Source: a virus | Taxonomy: Duplodnaviria; Caudoviricetes | Direction: 5' to 3' (one strand) | Virus record (IMG/VR): IMGVR_UViG_3300044297_000138 | Coordinates: 32,001-96,000 of that record | DNA: 64,000 nt | In this document: positions 51,925 to 60,550 of the stretch, in pieces | Layout of the letters: every line of letters begins with the position of its first letter | How positions within the stretch are numbered: position 1 is the stretch's first letter | Notes under the pieces: generated by a model | What the model was told of the DNA's origin: nothing | Database searches by the model: none | What the model saw: only the letters and a program-made list of their open reading frames with translations | Program-made: the position numbers and the translations under genes

Positions 51925-52038
51925 TGTCCCATCGGGATGGGAACCAGCAGTCCGAGGTAAGGCTGGTTATAAATTCCTCGGGTCAACGCCTTTTAGGGTT
52001 GGCAAATTTTAATTAACTCGCTTTTTAAGGAGAAACAA
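51925..52038 (+). promoter_or_regulatory. structured 5' UTR of hsp20 (pseudoknot plus ROSE-like SD-occluding hairpin)
   Basis: Stems 51927-51942, 51942-51968, 51982-52003; CCGAGG/CCTCGG pseudoknot; CTCGCT pairs with the AGGAG SD. Confidence 0.6.
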
Positions 52039-52491
52039 ATGACTTATCTTACCCCTATGCTCGACTTCCGTAAATTGGATCCATTTGCTGTCGGCTTTGA
52101 TGAAATGTTCAAAGACCTACAAGAAATGACACAAAATACTGCGAAGCAATTTACTGCATATCCTCCATACAACATCCGTCAAGTCAAAGACAACAAGTAT
52201 GTCATTGAAATGGCCGTTGCTGGTTTTGCAAAATCTGACATTGAAGTTACATTAGAAGGTAACACTTTAGTAATTAAAGGTTCTGCAAAAGAATTAGATG
52301 GAGAAGAAGGCACATTCTTACACAAAGGAATTGCCAACCGTAACTTTAGCCGTGAATTCAAATTGGCCGACAAGATTGAAATCAAAGACGCCGAATTGGT
52401 AAATGGTATGTTAAAGGTTTGGTTGGAAAATATGGTCAAAGCCCAAGACCTAATCAAGAAGATTGCTGTCAAGGAAAAGAAAGATGAATAA
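52039..52491 (+). CDS. small heat shock protein Hsp20 (IbpA-like)
   Basis: YPPYNI; IEMAVAGF; FLHKGIA.R.F.R.F.L; NGML. Confidence 0.93.
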   Translation: MTYLTPMLDFRKLDPFAVGFDEMFKDLQEMTQNTAKQFTAYPPYNIRQVKDNKYVIEMAVAGFAKSDIEVTLEGNTLVIKGSAKELDGEEGTFLHKGIANRNFSREFKLADKIEIKDAELVNGMLKVWLENMVKAQDLIKKIAVKEKKDE

Positions 52492-52552
52492 TTGGTGGCC
52501 CGTATCCGATGAGGAATGGGAACGCTTAAATCATCCAGAAAAATTCCGTTAA
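52484..52552 (+). CDS. 22-aa mini-ORF MNNWWPVSDEEWERLNHPEKFR
   Basis: AAGGA upstream; overlaps the hsp20 stop and ends just before the terminator. Confidence 0.4.
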   Translation: MNNWWPVSDEEWERLNHPEKFR

Positions 52553-52554
52553 TC

Positions 52555-52593
52555 AAAGGGGCTCTTGACAGAGCCCTTTCTTTTTGATATAAT
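52555..52593 (+). terminator. terminator overlapping a consensus sigma70 promoter
   Basis: GGGCTCT-TGAC-AGAGCCC plus T-tract; TTGACA (52565)-17 bp-TATAAT (52588). Confidence 0.8.
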
Positions 52594-52599
52594 TCCATT

Positions 52600-52788
52600 A
52601 TGAAAACCGAAAAACCAATTAAAGTTCGTGTGATATCTTCCAAGGAAGAATTTTACACCTTTAAAAGTTGGCCTACAAAAACAATTGAAGGCATTACTTT
52701 TATTGGTGTGAATAAGTTCGTACCTACGCAAGACAAAACACAAGTCATGTATTGGTTGCGTAAGGATTCTTTAGAATATCTGAATTAA
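52600..52788 (+). CDS. hypothetical protein (likely leaderless)
   Basis: ATG 6 nt after the -10 box. Confidence 0.6.
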   Translation: MKTEKPIKVRVISSKEEFYTFKSWPTKTIEGITFIGVNKFVPTQDKTQVMYWLRKDSLEYLN

Positions 52789-52791
52789 TTT

Positions 52792-52868
52792 GCGCCTGTA
52801 GCTCAGTTGGTCAGAGCAGGGGACTCATAATCCCTTGGTCCTAGGTTCAAGTCCTAGTGGGCGCACCA
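52792..52868 (+). tRNA. tRNA-Ile2 (CAT, lysidine type)
   Basis: Cloverleaf; GGGGA-CT-CAT-AA-TCCCT arm; C4/C5; CCA end. Confidence 0.85.
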
Positions 52869-52955
52869 TCTATCAACGACATAGAAAAAATCAATTAGAT
52901 TTTAAATTAAAATAGTGATATACTATCATACATAATTTTATTTAAGGAGAAATCT

Positions 52956-53093
52956 ATGAAGCAATATATGTGTGAAGTTTGTGGTCATATTCACGATGAA
53001 GAAACTATGGGTAAGTTGGAAAATTTGCCAAAGTATGCTAATTGTCCTGAATGTGGTGTTGATGTGAGAGAAGCATATAAAGAAGTTCAATGA
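52956..53093 (+). CDS. rubredoxin-like protein (45 aa)
   Basis: MKQYMCEVCGHIHDEE...LP...CPECG; AAGGAG RBS; too short for the ORF track. Confidence 0.85.
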   Translation: MKQYMCEVCGHIHDEETMGKLENLPKYANCPECGVDVREAYKEVQ

Positions 53094-53521
53094 AAGAAAA
53101 ATTTCGTAATGCATATATGAAAACGGCCGAGACATTCGCAGAATTGTCCTCGGCTCGTAGACTTCATGTCGGTGCGATTATTGTAAAAGATGACCGCATT
53201 ATAAGTATTGGTTATAATGGTATGCCTTCTGGTTGGGACAACAATTGTGAAAACGATTTTGGATTGGATTTTAATGGTAACCGGACTCTAGTAACAAAAC
53301 CCGAGGTGTTACATGCTGAAACTAATGCAATCGCTAAGTTGGCAAGATCAAACGAATCTGGCCTTGGTTCTACTATGTTTATCACTCATGCTCCTTGTCT
53401 GGACTGTGCAAAACTGGTATATCAGTCTGGTATCAATACCGTTTACTATCGGAACAGTTATCGTGATGAAAATGGCATACAATTCTTGGAAAAAGCGGGA
53501 GTAACAATAGAAAAGATTTGA
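53090..53521 (+). CDS. cd: dCMP deaminase
   Basis: GYNG; HAETNAI; PCLDC. Confidence 0.93.
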   Translation: MKEKFRNAYMKTAETFAELSSARRLHVGAIIVKDDRIISIGYNGMPSGWDNNCENDFGLDFNGNRTLVTKPEVLHAETNAIAKLARSNESGLGSTMFITHAPCLDCAKLVYQSGINTVYYRNSYRDENGIQFLEKAGVTIEKI

Positions 53522-53549
53522 CCGCTAAATAGGTCCAGGAGGGTGATCT

Positions 53550-54059
53550 ATGAATTTGAAGGTAATCAACTGTCCAGACAAGAACTTTAAACCTTACATA
53601 GAAAAGGCCGCTCTCTTTTACGCCAAGGAGTTGATTCCCAATACCAAAATTAGGAATAATTGCTTCACCACCATAAGATTTGATGGTAATTTGGAAGAAT
53701 ACGGATACGCATCCGTTGAAGATTACAACACCAGAAAACAAGCCAGAGAGTTCTTGATAGAAATACACCCTGGAATTGGTGCCAGAAAGATCCTGGAGAC
53801 TTTGGCACACGAAATGGTGCATGTCAAACAATATATACACAACGAAACCAACGATGACCTATCGGTCTGGCATGGTAAAAAATATAACTCCGATAAAATG
53901 GACTACTGGAGTCACCCATGGGAAATAGATGCCCATGGCCGTGAAACTGGCCTCTTAACTAAGTTTGCTATAAGTGAATGTTTATGGGAAGTTTTTGAAG
54001 AATTTAGGAATCCGAATCTACCAATAGTTTCTATTCCTATTAAGTGGAAGAAAATATGA
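53550..54059 (+). CDS. HExxH zinc metallopeptidase-like protein
   Basis: TLAHEMVHVKQ...PWEIDA. Confidence 0.75.
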   Translation: MNLKVINCPDKNFKPYIEKAALFYAKELIPNTKIRNNCFTTIRFDGNLEEYGYASVEDYNTRKQAREFLIEIHPGIGARKILETLAHEMVHVKQYIHNETNDDLSVWHGKKYNSDKMDYWSHPWEIDAHGRETGLLTKFAISECLWEVFEEFRNPNLPIVSIPIKWKKI

Positions 54060-54562
54060 GCCATGTTCATTGGGAACATAAAACATACGGTGCAGAAAAA
54101 ATTGAAGTTTTCCAGTGGGGTGAAGGTGCTACCTGTAAAATAGGAAAATATTGTTCTATTGCAGACAAAGTAAAAGTTTTTTTAGGTGGTGACCATAAAA
54201 TAAATTGGACTAGCACTTTTCCACATAGAGAACAAACAGGAACAAAAGGCGACATTATTATTGGCAACGATGTTTGGTTGAGTCACGGTGTTACCATCAT
54301 GTCCGGTGTTACAATAGGTGATGGTGCGATTGTTGCAGCCAATTCACATGTGGTTAAAAATGTTGAACCTTACACCATCGTTGGTGGAAATCCCGCAAAG
54401 TATATAAGACATAGATTTAGTGGCAACATAATAGATTTACTATTGCAATTAAAATGGTGGGATTTACCGGACGATGCGGTAAAAAGAATAGAAGATGTTT
54501 TATGTTCTGAACCGAACCAAGAAAAATTACTTGAGTTGGTAAAAGAACACAGAAGTATTTAA
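54056..54562 (+). CDS. CatB/Vat-like hexapeptide O-acetyltransferase
   Basis: IGKYCSIA; IGNDVWL; GVTIGDGAIVAA; VGGNPAK; WWD. Confidence 0.9.
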   Translation: MSHVHWEHKTYGAEKIEVFQWGEGATCKIGKYCSIADKVKVFLGGDHKINWTSTFPHREQTGTKGDIIIGNDVWLSHGVTIMSGVTIGDGAIVAANSHVVKNVEPYTIVGGNPAKYIRHRFSGNIIDLLLQLKWWDLPDDAVKRIEDVLCSEPNQEKLLELVKEHRSI

Positions 54563-54582
54563 AAATATTTTTACGAAATCGC

Positions 54583-54611
54583 TTGCCAACGGCAGCAAAT
54601 GCCTATATAAT
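54583..54611 (+). promoter_or_regulatory. sigma70 promoter of the leader/attenuator
   Basis: TTGCCA-17 bp-TATAAT. Confidence 0.8.
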
Positions 54612-54643
54612 ACAAACATATTGAAATTTTTACGAAAGAAAAA

Positions 54644-54748
54644 ATGTTATCCATACATAGATCGACACTAAAGGCCTGTGAGTATCGCACACCATTTATT
54701 GGTAGCGATAATCAGTCATGGCTAAAGGGGTCTTGTATAGGAGCTTAA
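54644..54748 (+). CDS. putative attenuator leader peptide MLSIHRSTLKACEYRTPFIGSDNQSWLKGSCIGA
   Basis: 34-codon ORF between a promoter and a terminator; its 3' codons are complementary to the terminator 5' side; only a weak A-rich RBS. Confidence 0.6.
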   Translation: MLSIHRSTLKACEYRTPFIGSDNQSWLKGSCIGA

Positions 54749-54781
54749 TACAAAAGTAGTAAAAGAAACTTCAAACACAAG

Positions 54782-54814
54782 ACCCAGACCCTCAAAAGTC
54801 TGGGTTTTTTGTTT
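54782..54814 (+). terminator. intrinsic terminator (attenuator) before the tRNA array
   Basis: ACCCAGAC-8 nt-GTCTGGGT-TTTTTGTTT. Confidence 0.85.
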
Positions 54815-54837
54815 GGTGTGTCATAAAAACAACACCA

Positions 54838-54886
54838 TTGACAAAGCAATCTGGCTTTGTTATAATAGAAAATCGTTCTTTAAAAA
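54838..54886 (+). promoter_or_regulatory. consensus sigma70 promoter plus rrn boxA-like element
   Basis: TTGACA-17 bp-TATAAT, then CGTTCTTTAAAAA at 54874-54886. Confidence 0.75.
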
Positions 54887-54903
54887 TTTGTAGAGTCATT
54901 TGT

Positions 54904-54979
54904 ACCCTCTTAGCCAAGCTGGTAAGGCATCGGATTTTGATTCCGACATGCGGTGGTTCAAGTCCATCAGGGGGTGCCA
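54904..54979 (+). tRNA. tRNA-Gln (TTG)
   Basis: Cloverleaf, CCA. Confidence 0.9.
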
Positions 54980-55064
54980 TACAAAAACACATCAGTATCG
55001 AAAAGGTACGTGCGACTGAAAAGCCGGGGTTTGTGAGCTTGGTGTGTTTCTATATGGTTTTAAT

Positions 55065-55156
55065 GGAAGTGTGGCAGAGTCCGGTTTATTGCACCTGTCT
55101 TGAAAACAGACGATCTGTAAAAGGGTCCGTGAGTTCGAATCTCACCGCTTCCGCCA
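55065..55156 (+). tRNA. tRNA-Ser (TGA)
   Basis: Cloverleaf, long variable arm, CCA. Confidence 0.9.
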
Positions 55157-55264
55157 ATATGTTGAGCTGGGAATTTGGCCTTCGATGTATCTAATAAGAA
55201 ACTAGCAAAACTATTAGAGTTGGCATCCTTCCTTGCTAGTTAATCAGCTCAACAAAATATTTAT

Positions 55265-55354
55265 GGAGAGTGGGCAGGATGGTAATGCAGCGGATTGCTA
55301 ATCCGTAGACTTACGAAAGTAGGTCACAGGGTTCGACTCCCTGACTCTCCGCCA
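55265..55354 (+). tRNA. tRNA-Ser (GCT)
   Basis: Cloverleaf, long variable arm, CCA. Confidence 0.9.
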
Positions 55355-55422
55355 AGTTGTGTTGCAACTGATTTGAGGAACTCCCGTACACCTCAAAGAG
55401 AATGACAAAAAAACGGGGCCAT

Positions 55423-55514
55423 GCCAGCGAGACTTGGTAGTCAGAGAGGTCTTATAAGCCTTTTAGCGCCAGATTAGCGTTCTTGAGTGAGTTCGATTCT
55501 CACCGCTGGTACCA
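55423..55514 (+). tRNA. atypical tRNA with TAT anticodon (nominal Ile), long variable arm
   Basis: GCCAGCG/CGCTGGT acceptor; GAGGT-CT-TAT-AA-GCCTT; GTGAG-TTCGATT-CTCAC; CCA. Confidence 0.75.
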
Positions 55515-55519
55515 ATCAT

Positions 55520-55595
55520 GTAGGTGTGACCCGAAAGGCTAGGGAACGGATTGCAAATCCGTTTTATGCAGGTTCGATTCCTGTCACCTACTCCA
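55520..55595 (+). tRNA. tRNA-Cys (GCA)
   Basis: Cloverleaf, U73, CCA. Confidence 0.9.
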
Positions 55596-55690
55596 TAATA
55601 CTTGATTGATTTTATGGAGAACTAAAGTGTTACTTGCCAAAATTATTAATTGTGATACAATAGAGTTTCTTTCATTGAATGAGGTATCAA

Positions 55691-55912
55691 ATGATTACTG
55701 AAAAGCAAATCAAAAAATTGAAAAAATTTGGTTATAAAGTTTTTGGAGTTGTTGGTCATAAAGAAGGAACACATTGCTTTGATTATTATGGGTATGAAGT
55801 ACCTAAAATTCGGAGCATTTGTCCCGCTTATGTTGCACACAAAGGAGAAATGAAAGCGTGGGAAGCAGTTTTGAAATTTCATCAAGAAGAAGTTGAAGGT
55901 GTTTTAATTTAA
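55691..55912 (+). CDS. hypothetical protein within the tRNA array
   Basis: GAGG RBS; upstream TTGCCA...TACAAT promoter-like sequence. Confidence 0.6.
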   Translation: MITEKQIKKLKKFGYKVFGVVGHKEGTHCFDYYGYEVPKIRSICPAYVAHKGEMKAWEAVLKFHQEEVEGVLI

Positions 55913-55922
55913 AAATTTGTGT

Positions 55923-55997
55923 GCTCGGTTCGTCTATCGGTTAGGACGCTGGCCTTTCACGCCGGAAAGACGAGTTCGATTCTCGTACCGAGTACCA
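55923..55997 (+). tRNA. tRNA-Glu (TTC)
   Basis: Cloverleaf, CCA. Confidence 0.9.
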
Positions 55998-56211
55998 TAT
56001 TAAATTGCATTGGGTTACCAATTCCAATAGGTGACTGTCAGGGATAGATTCAGCAGCCGTGCTGACCTTGACACAATCACATGAAGCCTGACGATGGTGT
56101 TGGAAGTAATTGGTTCGTAATGTGGACATAACCTTATCGGCGGACGAAGCCGTGAGAAGTCTCCTGGAGTGGAGAAACGGTTGTGACACCCCAATGTAAT
56201 TTAGTATGGTA
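55993..56211 (+). ncRNA. structured RNA closed by a 22-bp stem
   Basis: 55993-56014 pairs with 56190-56211; several inner helices. Confidence 0.6.
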
Positions 56212-56337
56212 TTATTTGTTTTGCTGATGTAAGCTCAGAGGTACGATCAAACGTTATGTAACTATGTAAATAAACGGTAATTCTTGCAAGTAAGTCCGTT
56301 GAGCATAGCATATAGTGCGTCAGCAAAACAAATGGTA
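56210..56337 (+). ncRNA. structured RNA closed by a 22-bp stem
   Basis: 56210-56231 pairs with 56316-56337. Confidence 0.55.
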
Positions 56338-56341
56338 TTAT

Positions 56342-56416
56342 GCAGGTGTAACTCAGAGGCAGAGTATCTGGCTTTTAACCAGAGAGTCGAGATTTCAAAA
56401 TTCTCCACCTGTACCA
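56342..56416 (+). tRNA. tRNA-Lys (TTT)
   Basis: Cloverleaf with a slightly irregular T arm, CCA. Confidence 0.85.
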
Positions 56417-56425
56417 GTAGAATTT

Positions 56426-56510
56426 GGAGGTGCCGCCGTAATGGTATGGCAGGAGACTGTAAATCTTCCGGCTTGCGCCACAGTAGGTTCGATCCCTACC
56501 ACCTCCACCA
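56426..56510 (+). tRNA. tRNA-Tyr (GTA)
   Basis: Cloverleaf, variable arm, CCA. Confidence 0.9.
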
Positions 56511-56515
56511 AATTT

Positions 56516-56590
56516 GGTCCGTAAGTGTTCATGGACGCACGTAAGCTTGTCACGCTTAAAGAAGGGGCTCGATACCCCTACGGACCGCCA
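56516..56590 (+). tRNA. tRNA-Asp (GTC)
   Basis: Cloverleaf, CCA. Confidence 0.85.
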
Positions 56591-56603
56591 TATATAATTT
56601 TAT

Positions 56604-56678
56604 TCCCCGTTAGCTCAGCGGCAGAGCAGTTGACTGTTAATCAATTGGTCCCTGGTTCGATCCCAGGATGGGGAGCCA
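56604..56678 (+). tRNA. tRNA-Asn (GTT)
   Basis: Cloverleaf, CCA. Confidence 0.92.
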
Positions 56679-56684
56679 AATATT

Positions 56685-56761
56685 CGGAGTGTAGCACAGC
56701 CTGGTAGTGCGCTTGCTTTGGGAGCAAGAGGTCCAAGGTTCGAATCCTTGTACTCCGACCA
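56685..56761 (+). tRNA. tRNA-Pro (TGG)
   Basis: Cloverleaf, CCA. Confidence 0.92.
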
Positions 56762-56766
56762 TCTTT

Positions 56767-56842
56767 GGGCCAGTAGCTCATCTGGGAGAGCATCTGCTTT
56801 GCAAGCAGAGGGTAGCGGGTTCAAGTCCTGTCTGGTCCACCA
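56767..56842 (+). tRNA. tRNA-Ala (TGC)
   Basis: Cloverleaf, G3:U70, CCA. Confidence 0.92.
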
Positions 56843-56845
56843 AAA

Positions 56846-57110
56846 CGTGCCGTCTAGTCAACGGCTACTCCGACCCGGAGGACGAGAAGTGGTGTGATGG
56901 CCACGGGTGGTTCTGAGATTTGGAATATAAGTCTCACAGTAGAAATACTGCGGTCTAACCAAACCGGCGCTGGCAATGCGATAACGGCCCCTGTCGGGGA
57001 GCGGGTGGAAGGTGCGTGTGATGGTGGTGTGGTATGAGTGCCTAAAAGGCGTCCTCAGAGTCCATTAACTGCTTGATGCGCTATAATTACCGCCGAGGGG
57101 TGCCAGAGCA
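56846..57110 (+). ncRNA. GC-rich multi-helix ncRNA (about 265 nt)
   Basis: Hairpins GCCGT/ACGGC, CTCCG/CGGAG, TGAGATTT/AAGTCTCA, CAGTA-GAAA-TACTG; nested CTGGCA/TGCCAG, CCCCT/AGGGG, GTGCGT/ATGCGC. Confidence 0.65.
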
Positions 57111-57113
57111 TTT

Positions 57114-57188
57114 GGTGATATAGCATAGAAGGATATGCACGGGTTTCATACGCCTGCAAGGTTGGATCGTTACCAACTATCACCACCA
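57114..57188 (+). tRNA. tRNA-Met (CAT, probably elongator)
   Basis: Cloverleaf, atypical T-loop ATCGTTA, CCA. Confidence 0.8.
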
Positions 57189-57194
57189 AATTTT

Positions 57195-57270
57195 CGGTCC
57201 TTGGTGAAACTGGAGATCATCTGAGTCTACGAAATTCAAGTTGGGGGCTCGAATCCCTCAGGACCGGCCA
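57195..57270 (+). tRNA. tRNA-Arg (ACG)
   Basis: Cloverleaf, CCA. Confidence 0.85.
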
Positions 57271-57275
57271 AATTT

Positions 57276-57350
57276 ACCGAGTTAGCTCAGCGGTAGAGCA
57301 GCGTCTTGATAAGGCGTTGGCCAGTGGTTCAATCCCACTACTCGGTACCA
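57276..57350 (+). tRNA. tRNA-Ile (GAT)
   Basis: Cloverleaf, CCA. Confidence 0.9.
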
Positions 57351-57352
57351 TT

Positions 57353-57427
57353 ATCTCGCTGGTGTCAACGGCAGCATGACGGTCTCCAAAACCGTGGGAC
57401 GGGGTTCGAATCCCTGGCGGGATGCCA
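57353..57427 (+). tRNA. tRNA-Trp (CCA)
   Basis: Cloverleaf, CCA. Confidence 0.9.
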
Positions 57428-57448
57428 TTTTTTATAAAGGTGATTGAT

Positions 57449-57925
57449 ATGAAAAAATTCAATGTAGAAGAAGTCAAAACATTCCTTGCAACACAAGGAC
57501 CTGATACCCGTGTATACTTGGGTGCCGACTCCGAAAGAATTAGAGTTAACGGCGTATGGTATGCTGACTATGCATTGGCTGTTGTTGTTCATATTGATGG
57601 CCGCCACGGTTGTAAAATTTTCGGTTATGTTGACCGTGAATTGGATTACGACCATAAGAAAAGTAAACCTGCTATGCGTCTGATGACAGAAGTATATAAG
57701 GTTTCAGAATTGTTTCAAGAATTGCAACATTCACTAGAAGATTTCCATGTTGAAGTTCACTTGGACTTAAATAAGGATGAAGAATTCGGTTCTTCTTGTG
57801 TTGTGCAACAAGCGATTGGTTACATCAAAGGTACATGTAACATGACACCTATGGTTAAACCAGACGCACCTGCCGCTTCTTTCTGTGCAGACCGACTGAA
57901 ACGGATTTTAGCGGAACAAGAATGA
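57449..57925 (+). CDS. RNase H-like YkuK/DUF458 family protein
   Basis: YLGADS...AVVVH...G..IF...L.TEV...EVHLD...KP.A.AAS..ADR. Confidence 0.75.
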   Translation: MKKFNVEEVKTFLATQGPDTRVYLGADSERIRVNGVWYADYALAVVVHIDGRHGCKIFGYVDRELDYDHKKSKPAMRLMTEVYKVSELFQELQHSLEDFHVEVHLDLNKDEEFGSSCVVQQAIGYIKGTCNMTPMVKPDAPAASFCADRLKRILAEQE

Positions 57926-57926
57926 T

Positions 57927-58001
57927 GCAGGAATTAGTTTAGTGGCAAAACCACGGGTTGTGATTCCGTTATCAAGAGTTCGATTCTCTTATTCCTGCCC
58001 A
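57927..58001 (+). tRNA. tRNA-His (GTG)
   Basis: 8-bp acceptor with G-1:C73, CCA. Confidence 0.9.
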
Positions 58002-58003
58002 AT

Positions 58004-58079
58004 GCTTCGTTAACTCAGTTGGTAGAGTGCCTCCCTTACAAGGAGGATGTCGGCAGTTCGAACCTGTCACGAAGCACCA
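58004..58079 (+). tRNA. tRNA-Val (TAC)
   Basis: Cloverleaf, CCA. Confidence 0.92.
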
Positions 58080-58084
58080 ATATT

Positions 58085-58160
58085 GCAGCTCTAGCTGATG
58101 TGGTCATAGCGGCGGTCTGAAGAACCGTTGAACCAGGTTCGATTCCTGGGGGTTGCACCA
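58085..58160 (+). tRNA. tRNA-Phe (GAA)
   Basis: Cloverleaf, CCA. Confidence 0.9.
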
Positions 58161-58161
58161 A

Positions 58162-58235
58162 GCTCTCATAGTATAATGGTATTACACACCCTTGGTAAGG
58201 GTGAAACACAAGTTCAATTCTTGTTGAGAGCACCA
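58162..58235 (+). tRNA. tRNA-Thr (GGT)
   Basis: Cloverleaf, CCA. Confidence 0.9.
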
Positions 58236-58423
58236 GATTGTTTTAATCTAGTCATTTTCTTTTTAATGTAAGCTGTTCTGGCAACATCATGTTCACATAT
58301 TTCAGCCAACAAAGCAATAATATAACCTAAATCATAGGCTAGTTTTTGTCCAGAAGTTTTGTGCTGGTTGCCAGAATTCTGGAGTTGTTCTATAATATAG
58401 TCTGTAAGTTGTTTTTTATTCAT
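58214..58423 (-). CDS. hypothetical protein antisense within the tRNA array
   Basis: 69-aa ORF filling the spacer; ATAAATA late-promoter-like motif just upstream on the minus strand. Confidence 0.55.
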   Translation of the reverse strand: MNKKQLTDYIIEQLQNSGNQHKTSGQKLAYDLGYIIALLAEICEHDVARTAYIKKKMTRLKQSGALNKN

Positions 58424-58437
58424 AGAAATATTTATTT

Positions 58438-58514
58438 GCCCCGGTGACGGAATTGGTATACGTGTTGGTCTTAGAAGCCAAATTTTGAGAGTTCGAGTCT
58501 CTCCTGGGGCACCA
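58438..58514 (+). tRNA. tRNA-Leu (TAG), short variable loop
   Basis: Cloverleaf, CCA. Confidence 0.88.
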
Positions 58515-58519
58515 AATTA

Positions 58520-58594
58520 CTGGCCATAGTATAATGGATAATACAGCTGCCTTCTAAGCAGTCAATCGGGGTTCGATTCCCTGTGGCCGGACCA
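58520..58594 (+). tRNA. tRNA-Arg (TCT)
   Basis: Cloverleaf, CCA. Confidence 0.9.
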
Positions 58595-58597
58595 AAT

Positions 58598-58682
58598 GCG
58601 ACTATGGTGAAATAGGTAGACACAGGAGACTTAAAATCTCCCGACTTCGGTCGTGCTGGTTCGATTCCGGCTAGTCGCACCA
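58598..58682 (+). tRNA. tRNA-Leu (TAA)
   Basis: Cloverleaf, variable arm, CCA. Confidence 0.92.
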
Positions 58683-58690
58683 AAAAGTTA

Positions 58691-58719
58691 TTGACATTGA
58701 TAGAAAGATCATATATAAT
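58691..58719 (+). promoter_or_regulatory. consensus sigma70 promoter inside the array
   Basis: TTGACA-17 bp-TATAAT. Confidence 0.85.
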
Positions 58720-58729
58720 ATAAATGTAA

Positions 58730-58804
58730 GCGGGATTGGTGCTAGTGGTAACACGGGACCTTGCCAAGGTTCAGTTGCGAGTTCGATCCTCGCATCCCGC
58801 TCCA
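58730..58804 (+). tRNA. tRNA-Gly (GCC)
   Basis: Cloverleaf, CCA. Confidence 0.9.
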
Positions 58805-58809
58805 AATGA

Positions 58810-58884
58810 GCTCCGTTAGTTCTAGTGGTAAAACATCGGTTTTGTAATCCGAGGTCGGGTGTTCGATTCACCCCCGGAGCACCA
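58810..58884 (+). tRNA. tRNA-Thr (TGT)
   Basis: Cloverleaf, CCA. Confidence 0.88.
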
Positions 58885-58892
58885 GATAATGC

Positions 58893-58921
58893 TTGACTCT
58901 ACAATTTTTTTGTGATATAAT
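58893..58921 (+). promoter_or_regulatory. sigma70 promoter inside the array
   Basis: TTGACT-17 bp-TATAAT with TGTGA extension. Confidence 0.8.
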
Positions 58922-58941
58922 TTGTTTTATTAAATATTAAT

Positions 58942-59014
58942 GCGGGTATTCTCCTGGGAGAGAATTTAGCCTTCCAAGCTAACAGAATCGGTTCGAATCC
59001 GGTTACCCGCTCCA
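58942..59014 (+). tRNA. tRNA-Gly (TCC)
   Basis: Cloverleaf with a compact D arm, CCA. Confidence 0.85.
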
Positions 59015-59021
59015 GTTTTAT

Positions 59022-59088
59022 GCGGTATGGTATTAACTGTCTGAGGGTCCACCTTAGAAGTGTTGTGAGAATCAATAATACCGCTCCA
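59022..59088 (+). ncRNA. tRNA-like RNA / pseudo-tRNA
   Basis: GCGGTAT/ATACCGC acceptor plus T-CCA; central TCTGAGG/CCTTAGA stem; no canonical D or T arms. Confidence 0.6.
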
Positions 59089-59094
59089 TTCAAT

Positions 59095-59169
59095 CGCAGG
59101 GTGGAGAAGTAGTAACTCATCAGGCTCATACCCTGAAGATCGGCGGTGCGAATCCGTCCCCTGCAACCA
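59095..59169 (+). tRNA. initiator tRNA-fMet (CAT)
   Basis: C1:A72 mismatch, CAT anticodon, CCA. Confidence 0.85.
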
Positions 59170-59182
59170 ATTTGAGGTAATT

Positions 59183-59422
59183 ATGAGACCATTGCATAAT
59201 AAAGTTATTGTTGAAAGAATTCCTGGTGAAACTACCACATCATCAGGAATTGTCTTACAAAGATCCGATGAGGTAGACAAAGCAAAAGTTATTGCGATTG
59301 GTCCAGATGTTGAAGAGGTTTCTGTCGGTGATACTGTCCTATTAGATTGGAACAGAGCAGTCAAGGCAGGAGACAATTTTGTTATTACAGTAGACAATAT
59401 CGTTTTAATTTACGGAGAGTAA
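59183..59422 (+). CDS. groES: GroES-like co-chaperonin
   Basis: MRPLHNKVIVER...TTSSGIVL...VIAIGP...VGDTVL. Confidence 0.88.
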   Translation: MRPLHNKVIVERIPGETTTSSGIVLQRSDEVDKAKVIAIGPDVEEVSVGDTVLLDWNRAVKAGDNFVITVDNIVLIYGE

Positions 59423-59423
59423 T

Positions 59424-59600
59424 ATGTCTGATGGTGGAAAAGGTTCCAGTCCAAGACCATATAGTGTAGATCAAAAAACATATTCTGATAATTGGGACAG
59501 AATTTTTAAGAAAAAAACTCCACAAGAAATAGACGATGACCGAGCCGAGCAAGAGGCTTTTGAGTTTATAAAAAAATTTAATGAAACATCAAAAAAGTAG
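59424..59600 (+). CDS. small hypothetical protein MSDGGKGSSPRP...NWDRIF (58 aa)
   Basis: GGAG RBS; 59 codons; absent from the ORF track. Confidence 0.7.
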   Translation: MSDGGKGSSPRPYSVDQKTYSDNWDRIFKKKTPQEIDDDRAEQEAFEFIKKFNETSKK

Positions 59601-59633
59601 TTAAAAAAATCTAAAGATTGGATACATATTGCT

Positions 59634-60071
59634 ATGAAGAAACTTGTAAATATCCAATCTTTAGATCATCCACTTGCACAATATTTAAAGGATGATCCGG
59701 TTCGTCCTGACATTCCACATGATGTGAGAGTGGGGTCTAATTCAACCGTGTTTGCGTTACAAGATGATGATAAATTATCCGCAATGGTATGTGTAAAATA
59801 CCAAGATAATGTTCCATCAAATATAAGTGAATTGATGGATGAACCTAAAAGTCCAAAAGTGGCAGTATTTTATACCATTTGGAGTTATATGGCTGGCGCA
59901 GGCCGTGATATGATTATGGAAACAAGAAAATGGATTGAGGGCAACAATCCTGAAATAGAAGAATTTGTTACCTATAGTCCAAAAACGGAAATGGCCAAGA
60001 GGTTTCACCTGAAAAACGGTGCATCAGTTTACCGTGAAAATGAAGATTCGGTAAACTACAAGTATGATTAA
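59634..60071 (+). CDS. hypothetical protein, possible GNAT fold
   Basis: AVFYTIWSY..GAGR.MI...FVTYSP...A.RFHLKNG. Confidence 0.55.
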   Translation: MKKLVNIQSLDHPLAQYLKDDPVRPDIPHDVRVGSNSTVFALQDDDKLSAMVCVKYQDNVPSNISELMDEPKSPKVAVFYTIWSYMAGAGRDMIMETRKWIEGNNPEIEEFVTYSPKTEMAKRFHLKNGASVYRENEDSVNYKYD

Positions 60072-60550
60072 TGTTTGGTCAGCATATACATGCTTATGCC
60101 ATAAACAAAAGACATAAAAACGCAGAATACAATAAACACCAAAGCTTTGTCCAAAATTGCAACGTGACCTTGCGCTTTTGCTCTTTTTAGTGCTGCTTCT
60201 CTTTCTGTTCTTTCTTTAATCATTCTAATACGTTCACGTTGCATTTCATCCCAAACATCTTTATTACCACTCCAAATAAGCATATCTCTTAGTTCTTTTT
60301 CAGCCTCTCTCAAAGCTTTGCTTTGTAAGGCTATTTGTAGACTCAAGGATCTTATTTGTCCGTCTGTAAGTTCTGATATTCCGGCTTTAATTTTATTGTG
60401 TGCGATATGCACTTTATCGCCGTGTTCAAAAAAGTTCGCAAATTGGCCGTAAAGATTTTTAACATCTTTACCTAATGCAACTGCTTGTTTTATACCACTT
60501 ACAGCCTGTTGAGCAGCTGTAAACGCCAAACCAATTGTAATTGGATCCAT
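60068..60550 (-). CDS. hypothetical membrane protein
   Basis: MDPITI start, coiled coil, C-terminal TM helix. Confidence 0.7.
   Translation of the reverse strand: MDPITIGLAFTAAQQAVSGIKQAVALGKDVKNLYGQFANFFEHGDKVHIAHNKIKAGISELTDGQIRSLSLQIALQSKALREAEKELRDMLIWSGNKDVWDEMQRERIRMIKERTEREAALKRAKAQGHVAILDKALVFIVFCVFMSFVYGISMYMLTKH

Follow-up and report, generated by a model that had tools for sequence, protein, structure and literature searches.

Here, we describe a compact unit that lies in front of a large tRNA gene array in an uncultured T4-like phage from a lake and that is probably a leader-peptide transcription attenuator, in which a short ORF sampling nearly every amino acid would gate transcripts from the promoter P1 into the array and let more of them pass when decoding is slow. 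The analysis is centered on a window of 64,000 nucleotides, which is part of a 174,535-bp IMG/VR virus record, and on loci related to it. About 40 IMG/VR loci share P1, an ORF of 25-43 codons, an antiterminator and a terminator followed by a tRNA array; based on BLAST and alignment, a second promoter (P2) and a boxA-like element are usually also present in these units. The sequences themselves establish these features, their conservation, the covariation of the pairings and the maintenance of both the ORF and its amino-acid completeness, whereas translation of the ORF, a kinetic mode of action of the switch and the nature of the physiological signal are inferred.

In the window, the unit measures about 230 nt from P1 through the terminator, and the terminated RNA would be ~190 nt long with a predicted start site at ~54618 (Table 1). 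The first-pass annotation of this DNA, which was made from the window alone, had listed P1, the ORF of 34 codons with a weak ribosome binding site, an intrinsic terminator, a further promoter at 54838 and 27 tRNA genes, and all of these are present; the terminator stem runs from 54779 to 54808, with the T run extending to 54810. Its reading of the first 26 codons as 25 different codons for 19 amino acids, with Val missing, is equally correct, and Val is absent from the entire peptide, which contains 19 of the 20 amino acids. The complementarity that it had noticed in front of the array also holds: the core of segment 2 is the exact reverse complement of the core of segment 3, and segment 3 and the 5' arm of the terminator share positions 54780-54785. 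The pairing scheme drawn at that stage was right about the antiterminator (segments 2:3) and the terminator (segments 3:4) but had overlooked segment 1, a second antiterminator helix formed in the window by the GGAG of segment 2 and the CTTC of segment 3, and a central hairpin (H1) inside the ORF. The GGAG is Shine-Dalgarno-like and lies in the last leader codons, and relatives have GGAG or GAGG; it might slow the ribosome near the stop codon.

Table 1. Coordinates of the leader unit and its surroundings in the window
Feature	Position	Strand	Remarks
169-aa gene upstream of leader unit	53550-54059		anchor for relatives
Promoter P1, sigma-70 type, TTGCCA-17-TATAAT	54583-54611	+	11/12 consensus matches
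Weak Shine-Dalgarno-like GAAAG	54634-54638	+	5 nt before ATG
Leader ORF, 34 codons	54644-54748	+	stop TAA 54746-54748
Segment 1 (anti-antiterminator strand), codons 3-7	54650-54663	+	pairs with segment 2; MFE folds
Central hairpin H1 inside ORF, codons 10-27	54673-54723	+	MFE folds, covariation
Segment 2, antiterminator 5' strand	54727-54743	+	core GGGTCTTGT (54728-54736) plus GGAG (54740-54743)
Segment 3, antiterminator 3' strand	54769-54785	+	CTTC (54769-54772) plus core ACAAGACCC (54777-54785)
Intrinsic terminator (segments 3:4)	~54779-54810	+	10-bp stem, 8-nt loop, -14.8 kcal/mol
T run of terminator	54805-54810	+	
Small hairpin between terminator T run and P2 -35 box	54814-54837	+	alignment
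Promoter P2, TTGACA-17-TATAAT, extended -10 TG	54838-54866	+	12/12 consensus
boxA-like element GTTCTTTAAAAAT between P2 and tRNA-Gln	54876-54888	+	
27 tRNA genes, all 20 amino acids	54904-59169	+	candidate regulated genes of the switch

The array has T4-like neighbors, which encode an SbcC-like gp46, a clamp loader, a dCMP deaminase and Hsp20. Between the 169-aa gene and P1, the window carries an inserted hexapeptide acetyltransferase gene (Vat / streptogramin-acetyltransferase-like; 54044-54562) that shares 44-51% identity with copies from phages and metagenomes; the insert is missing from L002 and L003, the closest relatives, and other relatives have a different insert at the same spot. Elsewhere in the window, a hairpin resembling a terminator (52556-52579) overlaps with a promoter of perfect consensus at 52565-52593 (sites 52556-52593 and 52792-52868), downstream of which lie an ORF of 62 aa and an isolated tRNA-Met(CAT), and a tRNA with the anticodon CAT is found in the same relative place in most relatives.

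The leader RNA of the window folds with -51.9 kcal/mol (z = -4.7), and none of 200 shuffles was as stable; the stretch 54665-54797, which leaves out segment 1 and the 3' arm of the terminator, forms H1 and the antiterminator (z = -3.9). The amino-acid count of the window leader is, on its own, mildly unusual (p about 0.01-0.04): among the 236 ORFs of 31-43 aa that the window contains, 5 attain 19 amino acids, 34-aa windows of real proteins reach at least 19 with P = 0.01, and P is 0.04 when the ORF is compared with dinucleotide shuffles that keep its frame open. These values are suggestive, and the decisive weight comes from the relatives. A chance arrangement, in which the promoter would be an unremarkable intergenic one, the ORF spurious and the terminator that of the operon upstream, is hardly credible: the modest amino-acid count and the 9-nt complement, no great rarity close to a terminator, would fit such a coincidence, but the z-scores of both folds do not, and the reading is contradicted by the comparative data, in which the ORF, the start signals and all pairings are conserved where the neighboring protein is only 50-79% identical.

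To collect relatives, we anchored on the 169-aa gene and fetched 80 IMG/VR loci with 39-79% protein identity. The next feature after this gene is a gap of ~250-350 nt followed by tRNA-Gln(TTG) in 33 of the 80 loci, and the gap extends to ~700-1,830 nt in some loci because an extra gene is inserted, as with the acetyltransferase gene in the window. A profile of the peptide locates the leader ORF in 37 loci, shorter or more divergent versions are found in L015, L018, L023, L025, L027, L034, L047 and L060, and when 1.8 billion representative proteins were searched with a profile, 21 matches were obtained, 15 of which are new leaders. P1 is aligned in nearly all relatives. The frame of the ORF is open in all 31 distinct copies (31-43 codons), whereas the other two frames of the same region contain 1.7 and 3.5 stops on average. 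Two start designs occur among the relatives. In the first, a GAAAG, GGAG or AGGA(AG) box is followed by ATG, GTG or TTG ~33 nt past the -10 box; in the second, ATG is located 6 nt past TATAAT, as would suit a leaderless mRNA. That a start has been retained in two different ways speaks for translation of the ORF.

The changes in the leader between relatives show no coding bias. The first, second and third codon positions have similar entropies (1.02, 1.04 and 1.11 bits), and synonymous changes make up 27.6% of the single-base codon differences. The substitutions look neutral at the amino-acid level, so that the peptide sequence as such seems not to be selected, and the conserved peptide motif follows from constraints on the RNA. 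These patterns bear on the alternative that the unit is a separate small gene, for a microprotein or for a ~190-nt terminated RNA that acts in trans as a small RNA, in which case the pairing to the terminator arm would stabilize the RNA or control its translation and would not act on the tRNA genes. P1 through the terminator does form a complete transcription unit, followed by P2, and both the peptide motif and H1 are conserved; moreover, two reports on Sinorhizobium describe attenuator-derived RNAs and peptides that can act in trans (PMC6614838, PMC7298713). We nevertheless consider a separate small gene distinctly unlikely: because the substitutions look neutral, a functional, folded peptide is improbable, the 2:3 pairing both excludes the terminator and covaries, and the unit is always located directly upstream of a tRNA array, in one subclade with no promoter in between.

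The MFE folds of all leaders follow a common plan, in which a hairpin of segment 1 (codons 2-9) with segment 2 encloses H1 and is followed by the terminator. The tip helix of H1 varies in sequence and length between clades and covaries among relatives, and a block of 48 nt in H1 (54674-54721) is 94% identical in L049, L054 and L055, in which the identity of the neighboring protein is far lower (52-53%). A 2:3 duplex is found in all 33 leaders examined, with energies of -12 to -25 kcal/mol, and the terminators have -12 to -18 kcal/mol. The strands of segments 2 and 3 pair better with their partner from the same genome (-18.7 kcal/mol) than with strands from other genomes (-15.5 kcal/mol; 0 of 5000 permutations), and compensatory changes together with matched indels are seen in L002, L011, L023, L052 and L067; in L023, as in L011, a G run and a C run have changed in concert (AGG with CCT). 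On the plain MAFFT alignment (A1), in which the helices are misaligned, RNAalifold recovered only three pairs, and per-sequence duplexes and an alignment of a 16-sequence subset (A3) were used instead. On A3, 84.8% of the cells of the antiterminator are paired, compared with 26-50% when the partners are slid; for the terminated-state structure, 82.6% are paired versus 34-50%, with a covariation score above those of all 500 shuffles. The stem sequences of the terminators differ among relatives with compensatory changes. For 1:2, segment 2 pairs with nt 4-30 of the ORF in 33/33 nascent folds (up to nt 53 in L011), and covariation is weak (157 of 5000 permutations, and 1031 of 5000 with wide windows). 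The proposal that a terminator/antiterminator switch governed by a leader peptide precedes the array is thus upheld by the related phages, in which the short ORF and its pairings are conserved and antiterminator and terminator covary.

According to our model, the attenuator would gate transcripts from P1 and from the upstream genes before they enter the tRNA array, and the leader RNA would adopt one of three alternatives, namely 1:2, 2:3 or 3:4. On a leader without a ribosome, 1:2 would form, and the terminator would halt transcription. A fast ribosome that has arrived at the stop codon would cover segment 2, which would again allow the terminator to form; across relatives, the stop codon begins 1-19 nt past the antiterminator core. 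A ribosome delayed in the ORF would separate segment 1 from segment 2, 2:3 would form, and the polymerase would read through P2 and the boxA-like element into the tRNA genes. The nascent folds predict termination on a leader without a ribosome, and in an equilibrium model of this state the probability of the terminator is 0.69-1.0. With a ribosome footprint of 28 nt over codons 1-12, the model gives the antiterminator in most leaders. If pairing across the ribosome is barred, the window leader is predicted to form the antiterminator with the A site at codons 1-25 and the terminator at codons 26-35, such that roughly the last 10 codons give the terminator. Stalling at any codon had been suggested to free the antiterminator; in the model, this extends to codons 1-25 provided that no pairs form across the ribosome, and otherwise to codons 1-12 only. 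In about a third of the relatives, the terminator is favored at equilibrium for every ribosome position, and the antiterminator would therefore have to act kinetically in these leaders, by forming first. An antiterminator that forms first is the usual case in known attenuators such as the trp leader.

P2 lies downstream of the attenuator and is kept in most relatives. Because this perfect-consensus promoter can supply transcripts of the array independently of the switch, the attenuator can be no more than an additional input in this phage, as the first-pass annotation had already cautioned. In the model, transcripts started at P2 would enter the array without meeting the switch, and the boxA-like element would be passed on either route. 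This element, which we take to resemble the rrn-type Nus boxA (GCTCTTTAACAA), is nearly invariant among relatives, some of which have the form CTCTTTAACAA, closer to the rrn boxA; the sequence likeness suggests that Nus factors may mediate antitermination of the untranslated tRNA array. The small hairpin between the T run and P2 is conserved and shows a compensatory change, with TGGTGT/ACACCA in the window and TGTTGT/ACAACA in most relatives. P2 is absent in one subclade (L015, L018, L023, L027 and L034), in which the leader lies ~170-220 nt after the 169-aa gene, is leaderless and has 30 codons for 16-18 amino acids. The terminator of these leaders directly adjoins tRNA-Trp or tRNA-Ser, so that read-through would be a direct route into the array. 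The arrays of this subclade comprise only 10-13 tRNAs, with 10-12 in L015, L027 and L034, whose arrays lie entirely within the locus.

The second property of the unit is the composition of the leader. All 20 amino acids are present in 19 of the 31 distinct leaders, 19 amino acids in 10 and 18 in 2; in the 15 further leaders from the protein database, 11 have 20 and 4 have 19. Windows of real proteins contain all 20 amino acids with probabilities of 7.5e-5 at 31 aa and 3e-3 at 39 aa, and complete sets occur in 7 of 2743 (0.26%) other small ORFs in the same DNA versus 18 of 29 (62%) leaders. Composition-matched dinucleotide shuffles have a mean of 16.6 distinct residues compared with the 19.55 observed, with per-sequence P values of about 0.00-0.16 (0.53 for L009). 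Because the leaders are related, independent events are fewer than sequences and family-level P values overstate independence, and shuffling within alignment columns is the key test. Among 13 representatives with less than 55% identity, column shuffles gave 17.8 +/- 0.3 amino acids versus 19.4 observed (0 of 3000), and with all sequences 0 of 5000 shuffles reached the observed value, with the caveat that alignment error would inflate this compensation signal. A null based on simulation along a tree was discarded because its calibration was circular. Residues relocate between clades, with His found in 10 different columns and Cys in 7. Judging from these alignments, completeness is kept by moving residues between positions and not by mere conservation.

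We considered whether this completeness could arise without selection for it. In such a case, the attenuator would sense only the general coupling of transcription and translation, or the overall translation capacity, and the rich composition would come about as a by-product of keeping the RNA balanced and structured with one frame open. The shuffles lend this idea some ground, as they already average more than 16 distinct residues; moreover, isoacceptor coverage is at chance, the subclade without P2 manages with its smaller set of amino acids, and the simplest model lets the switch flip only for a ribosome on codons 1-12. We regard a sensor of coupling alone as unlikely, however, given that the column shuffles show compensation that keeps the sets complete, that independent database leaders are complete as well, and that other small ORFs of the same DNA so rarely are.

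The excess diversity of the leader proposed at first thus stands as amino-acid coverage, a family property kept by compensation, and not at the level of codons or isoacceptor classes. The sampling of isoacceptor classes that had been claimed is no better than synonymous-codon chance: leader codons cover the tRNA species of the phage to the extent expected from synonymous codon choice (P = 0.27 in the window), this coverage is not conserved, and codons for tRNA-Leu(TAG) and tRNA-Arg(TCT) are often unsampled. In reduced arrays, leader residues gave no signal of a match to the array either; the L015 leader contains 11 of the 12 amino acids served by its array and 7 of the 8 that are not. The signal appears to lie at the amino-acid level, and 'pan-amino-acid' fits it better than 'pan-tRNA'. 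That the leader is a selected 'pangram' peptide, which would sense all aminoacyl-tRNAs and raise transcription of the tRNA set when any decoding slows, is a reading that we put forward tentatively and that has, in our judgment, a little less than an even chance of being right. With nearly every amino acid in the leader, the transit time of the ribosome would depend on every kind of charged tRNA, and slow decoding of any amino acid would add tRNA transcription.

The unit shares with the trpL, hisL, leuL and pheL attenuators a promoter-proximal short ORF, the 1:2, 2:3 and 3:4 alternatives, an intrinsic terminator, a stop codon placed such that the terminating ribosome masks segment 2, and predicted termination on an untranslated leader. 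In contrast to these systems, which rely on runs of one regulatory codon, the phage leaders have no such runs and contain 19-20 different amino acids, nearly all 20 once or twice. They are also longer (25-43 codons) and enclose a conserved hairpin, the genes that they would regulate are phage tRNA genes and not those for biosynthetic enzymes, and a second promoter follows the terminator. Leaders that respond to several amino acids with mixed regulatory codons are represented by thrL (Thr, Ile) and ilvGMEDA/ilvBN (Ile, Leu, Val); however, there 2-3 amino acids are clustered in segment 1, whereas in the phage leader 19-20 are distributed across the whole ORF. T-box riboswitches similarly make a terminator/antiterminator decision in answer to tRNA status, but a T-box binds one uncharged tRNA directly and without translation, while the phage unit maintains an ORF and has no Rfam match. 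Finally, at pyrBI/pyrE the distance between ribosome and RNA polymerase is read on a leader ORF without amino-acid-specific codon runs. In that case, the signal is UTP-dependent pausing and a close ribosome prevents the terminator; in the phage unit, a close ribosome is predicted to allow it.

Searches outside the metagenomic loci returned little. In GenBank, no phage DNA matched the leader region, and the cultured phages include no close relative. The proteins most similar to that of the 169-aa gene are those of Cr30, DLP_6 and Melnitz (31-35% identity), in which no tRNA array lies next to the gene. With the leader peptide as query, tblastn returned nothing above noise (E >= 2), and the exact 35-nt terminator pattern had 0 matches in IMG/VR. 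In arrays of Tevenvirinae (Serratia CHI14 and Enterobacter CW742), protein genes reach the first tRNA, and no comparable leader is found. A cmscan of 52000-60500 with E values up to 1 gave no match to an Rfam family in 54563-54903, be it the T-box or the His, Trp, Leu, Thr and Phe leaders, and in two public metatranscriptomes only tRNA-like parts were covered, largely from other organisms. Full-text searches of the literature turned up neither a comparable control of tRNA genes nor a leader with all amino acids.

Textbooks present leader-peptide attenuation as a means by which one or a few amino acids regulate amino-acid synthesis. More tRNA would be no help in true amino-acid starvation, and the selective logic of a switch in front of tRNA genes would therefore require that tRNA, and not the amino acid, is limiting. 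We speculate that slowed decoding could arise as host tRNAs decay or as anticodon nucleases cut them, in which case the 'pangram' reading would amount to a homeostatic feedback from translation to tRNA gene transcription. The sigma-70-like promoters and the size of ~230 nt make the unit directly testable in E. coli, and if the switch works, it could provide a compact natural sensor of translation stress. If the model is true, the unit would be the first described cis-acting link from overall decoding speed to the transcription of tRNA genes and would offer a new answer to the question of how phages regulate large tRNA sets.
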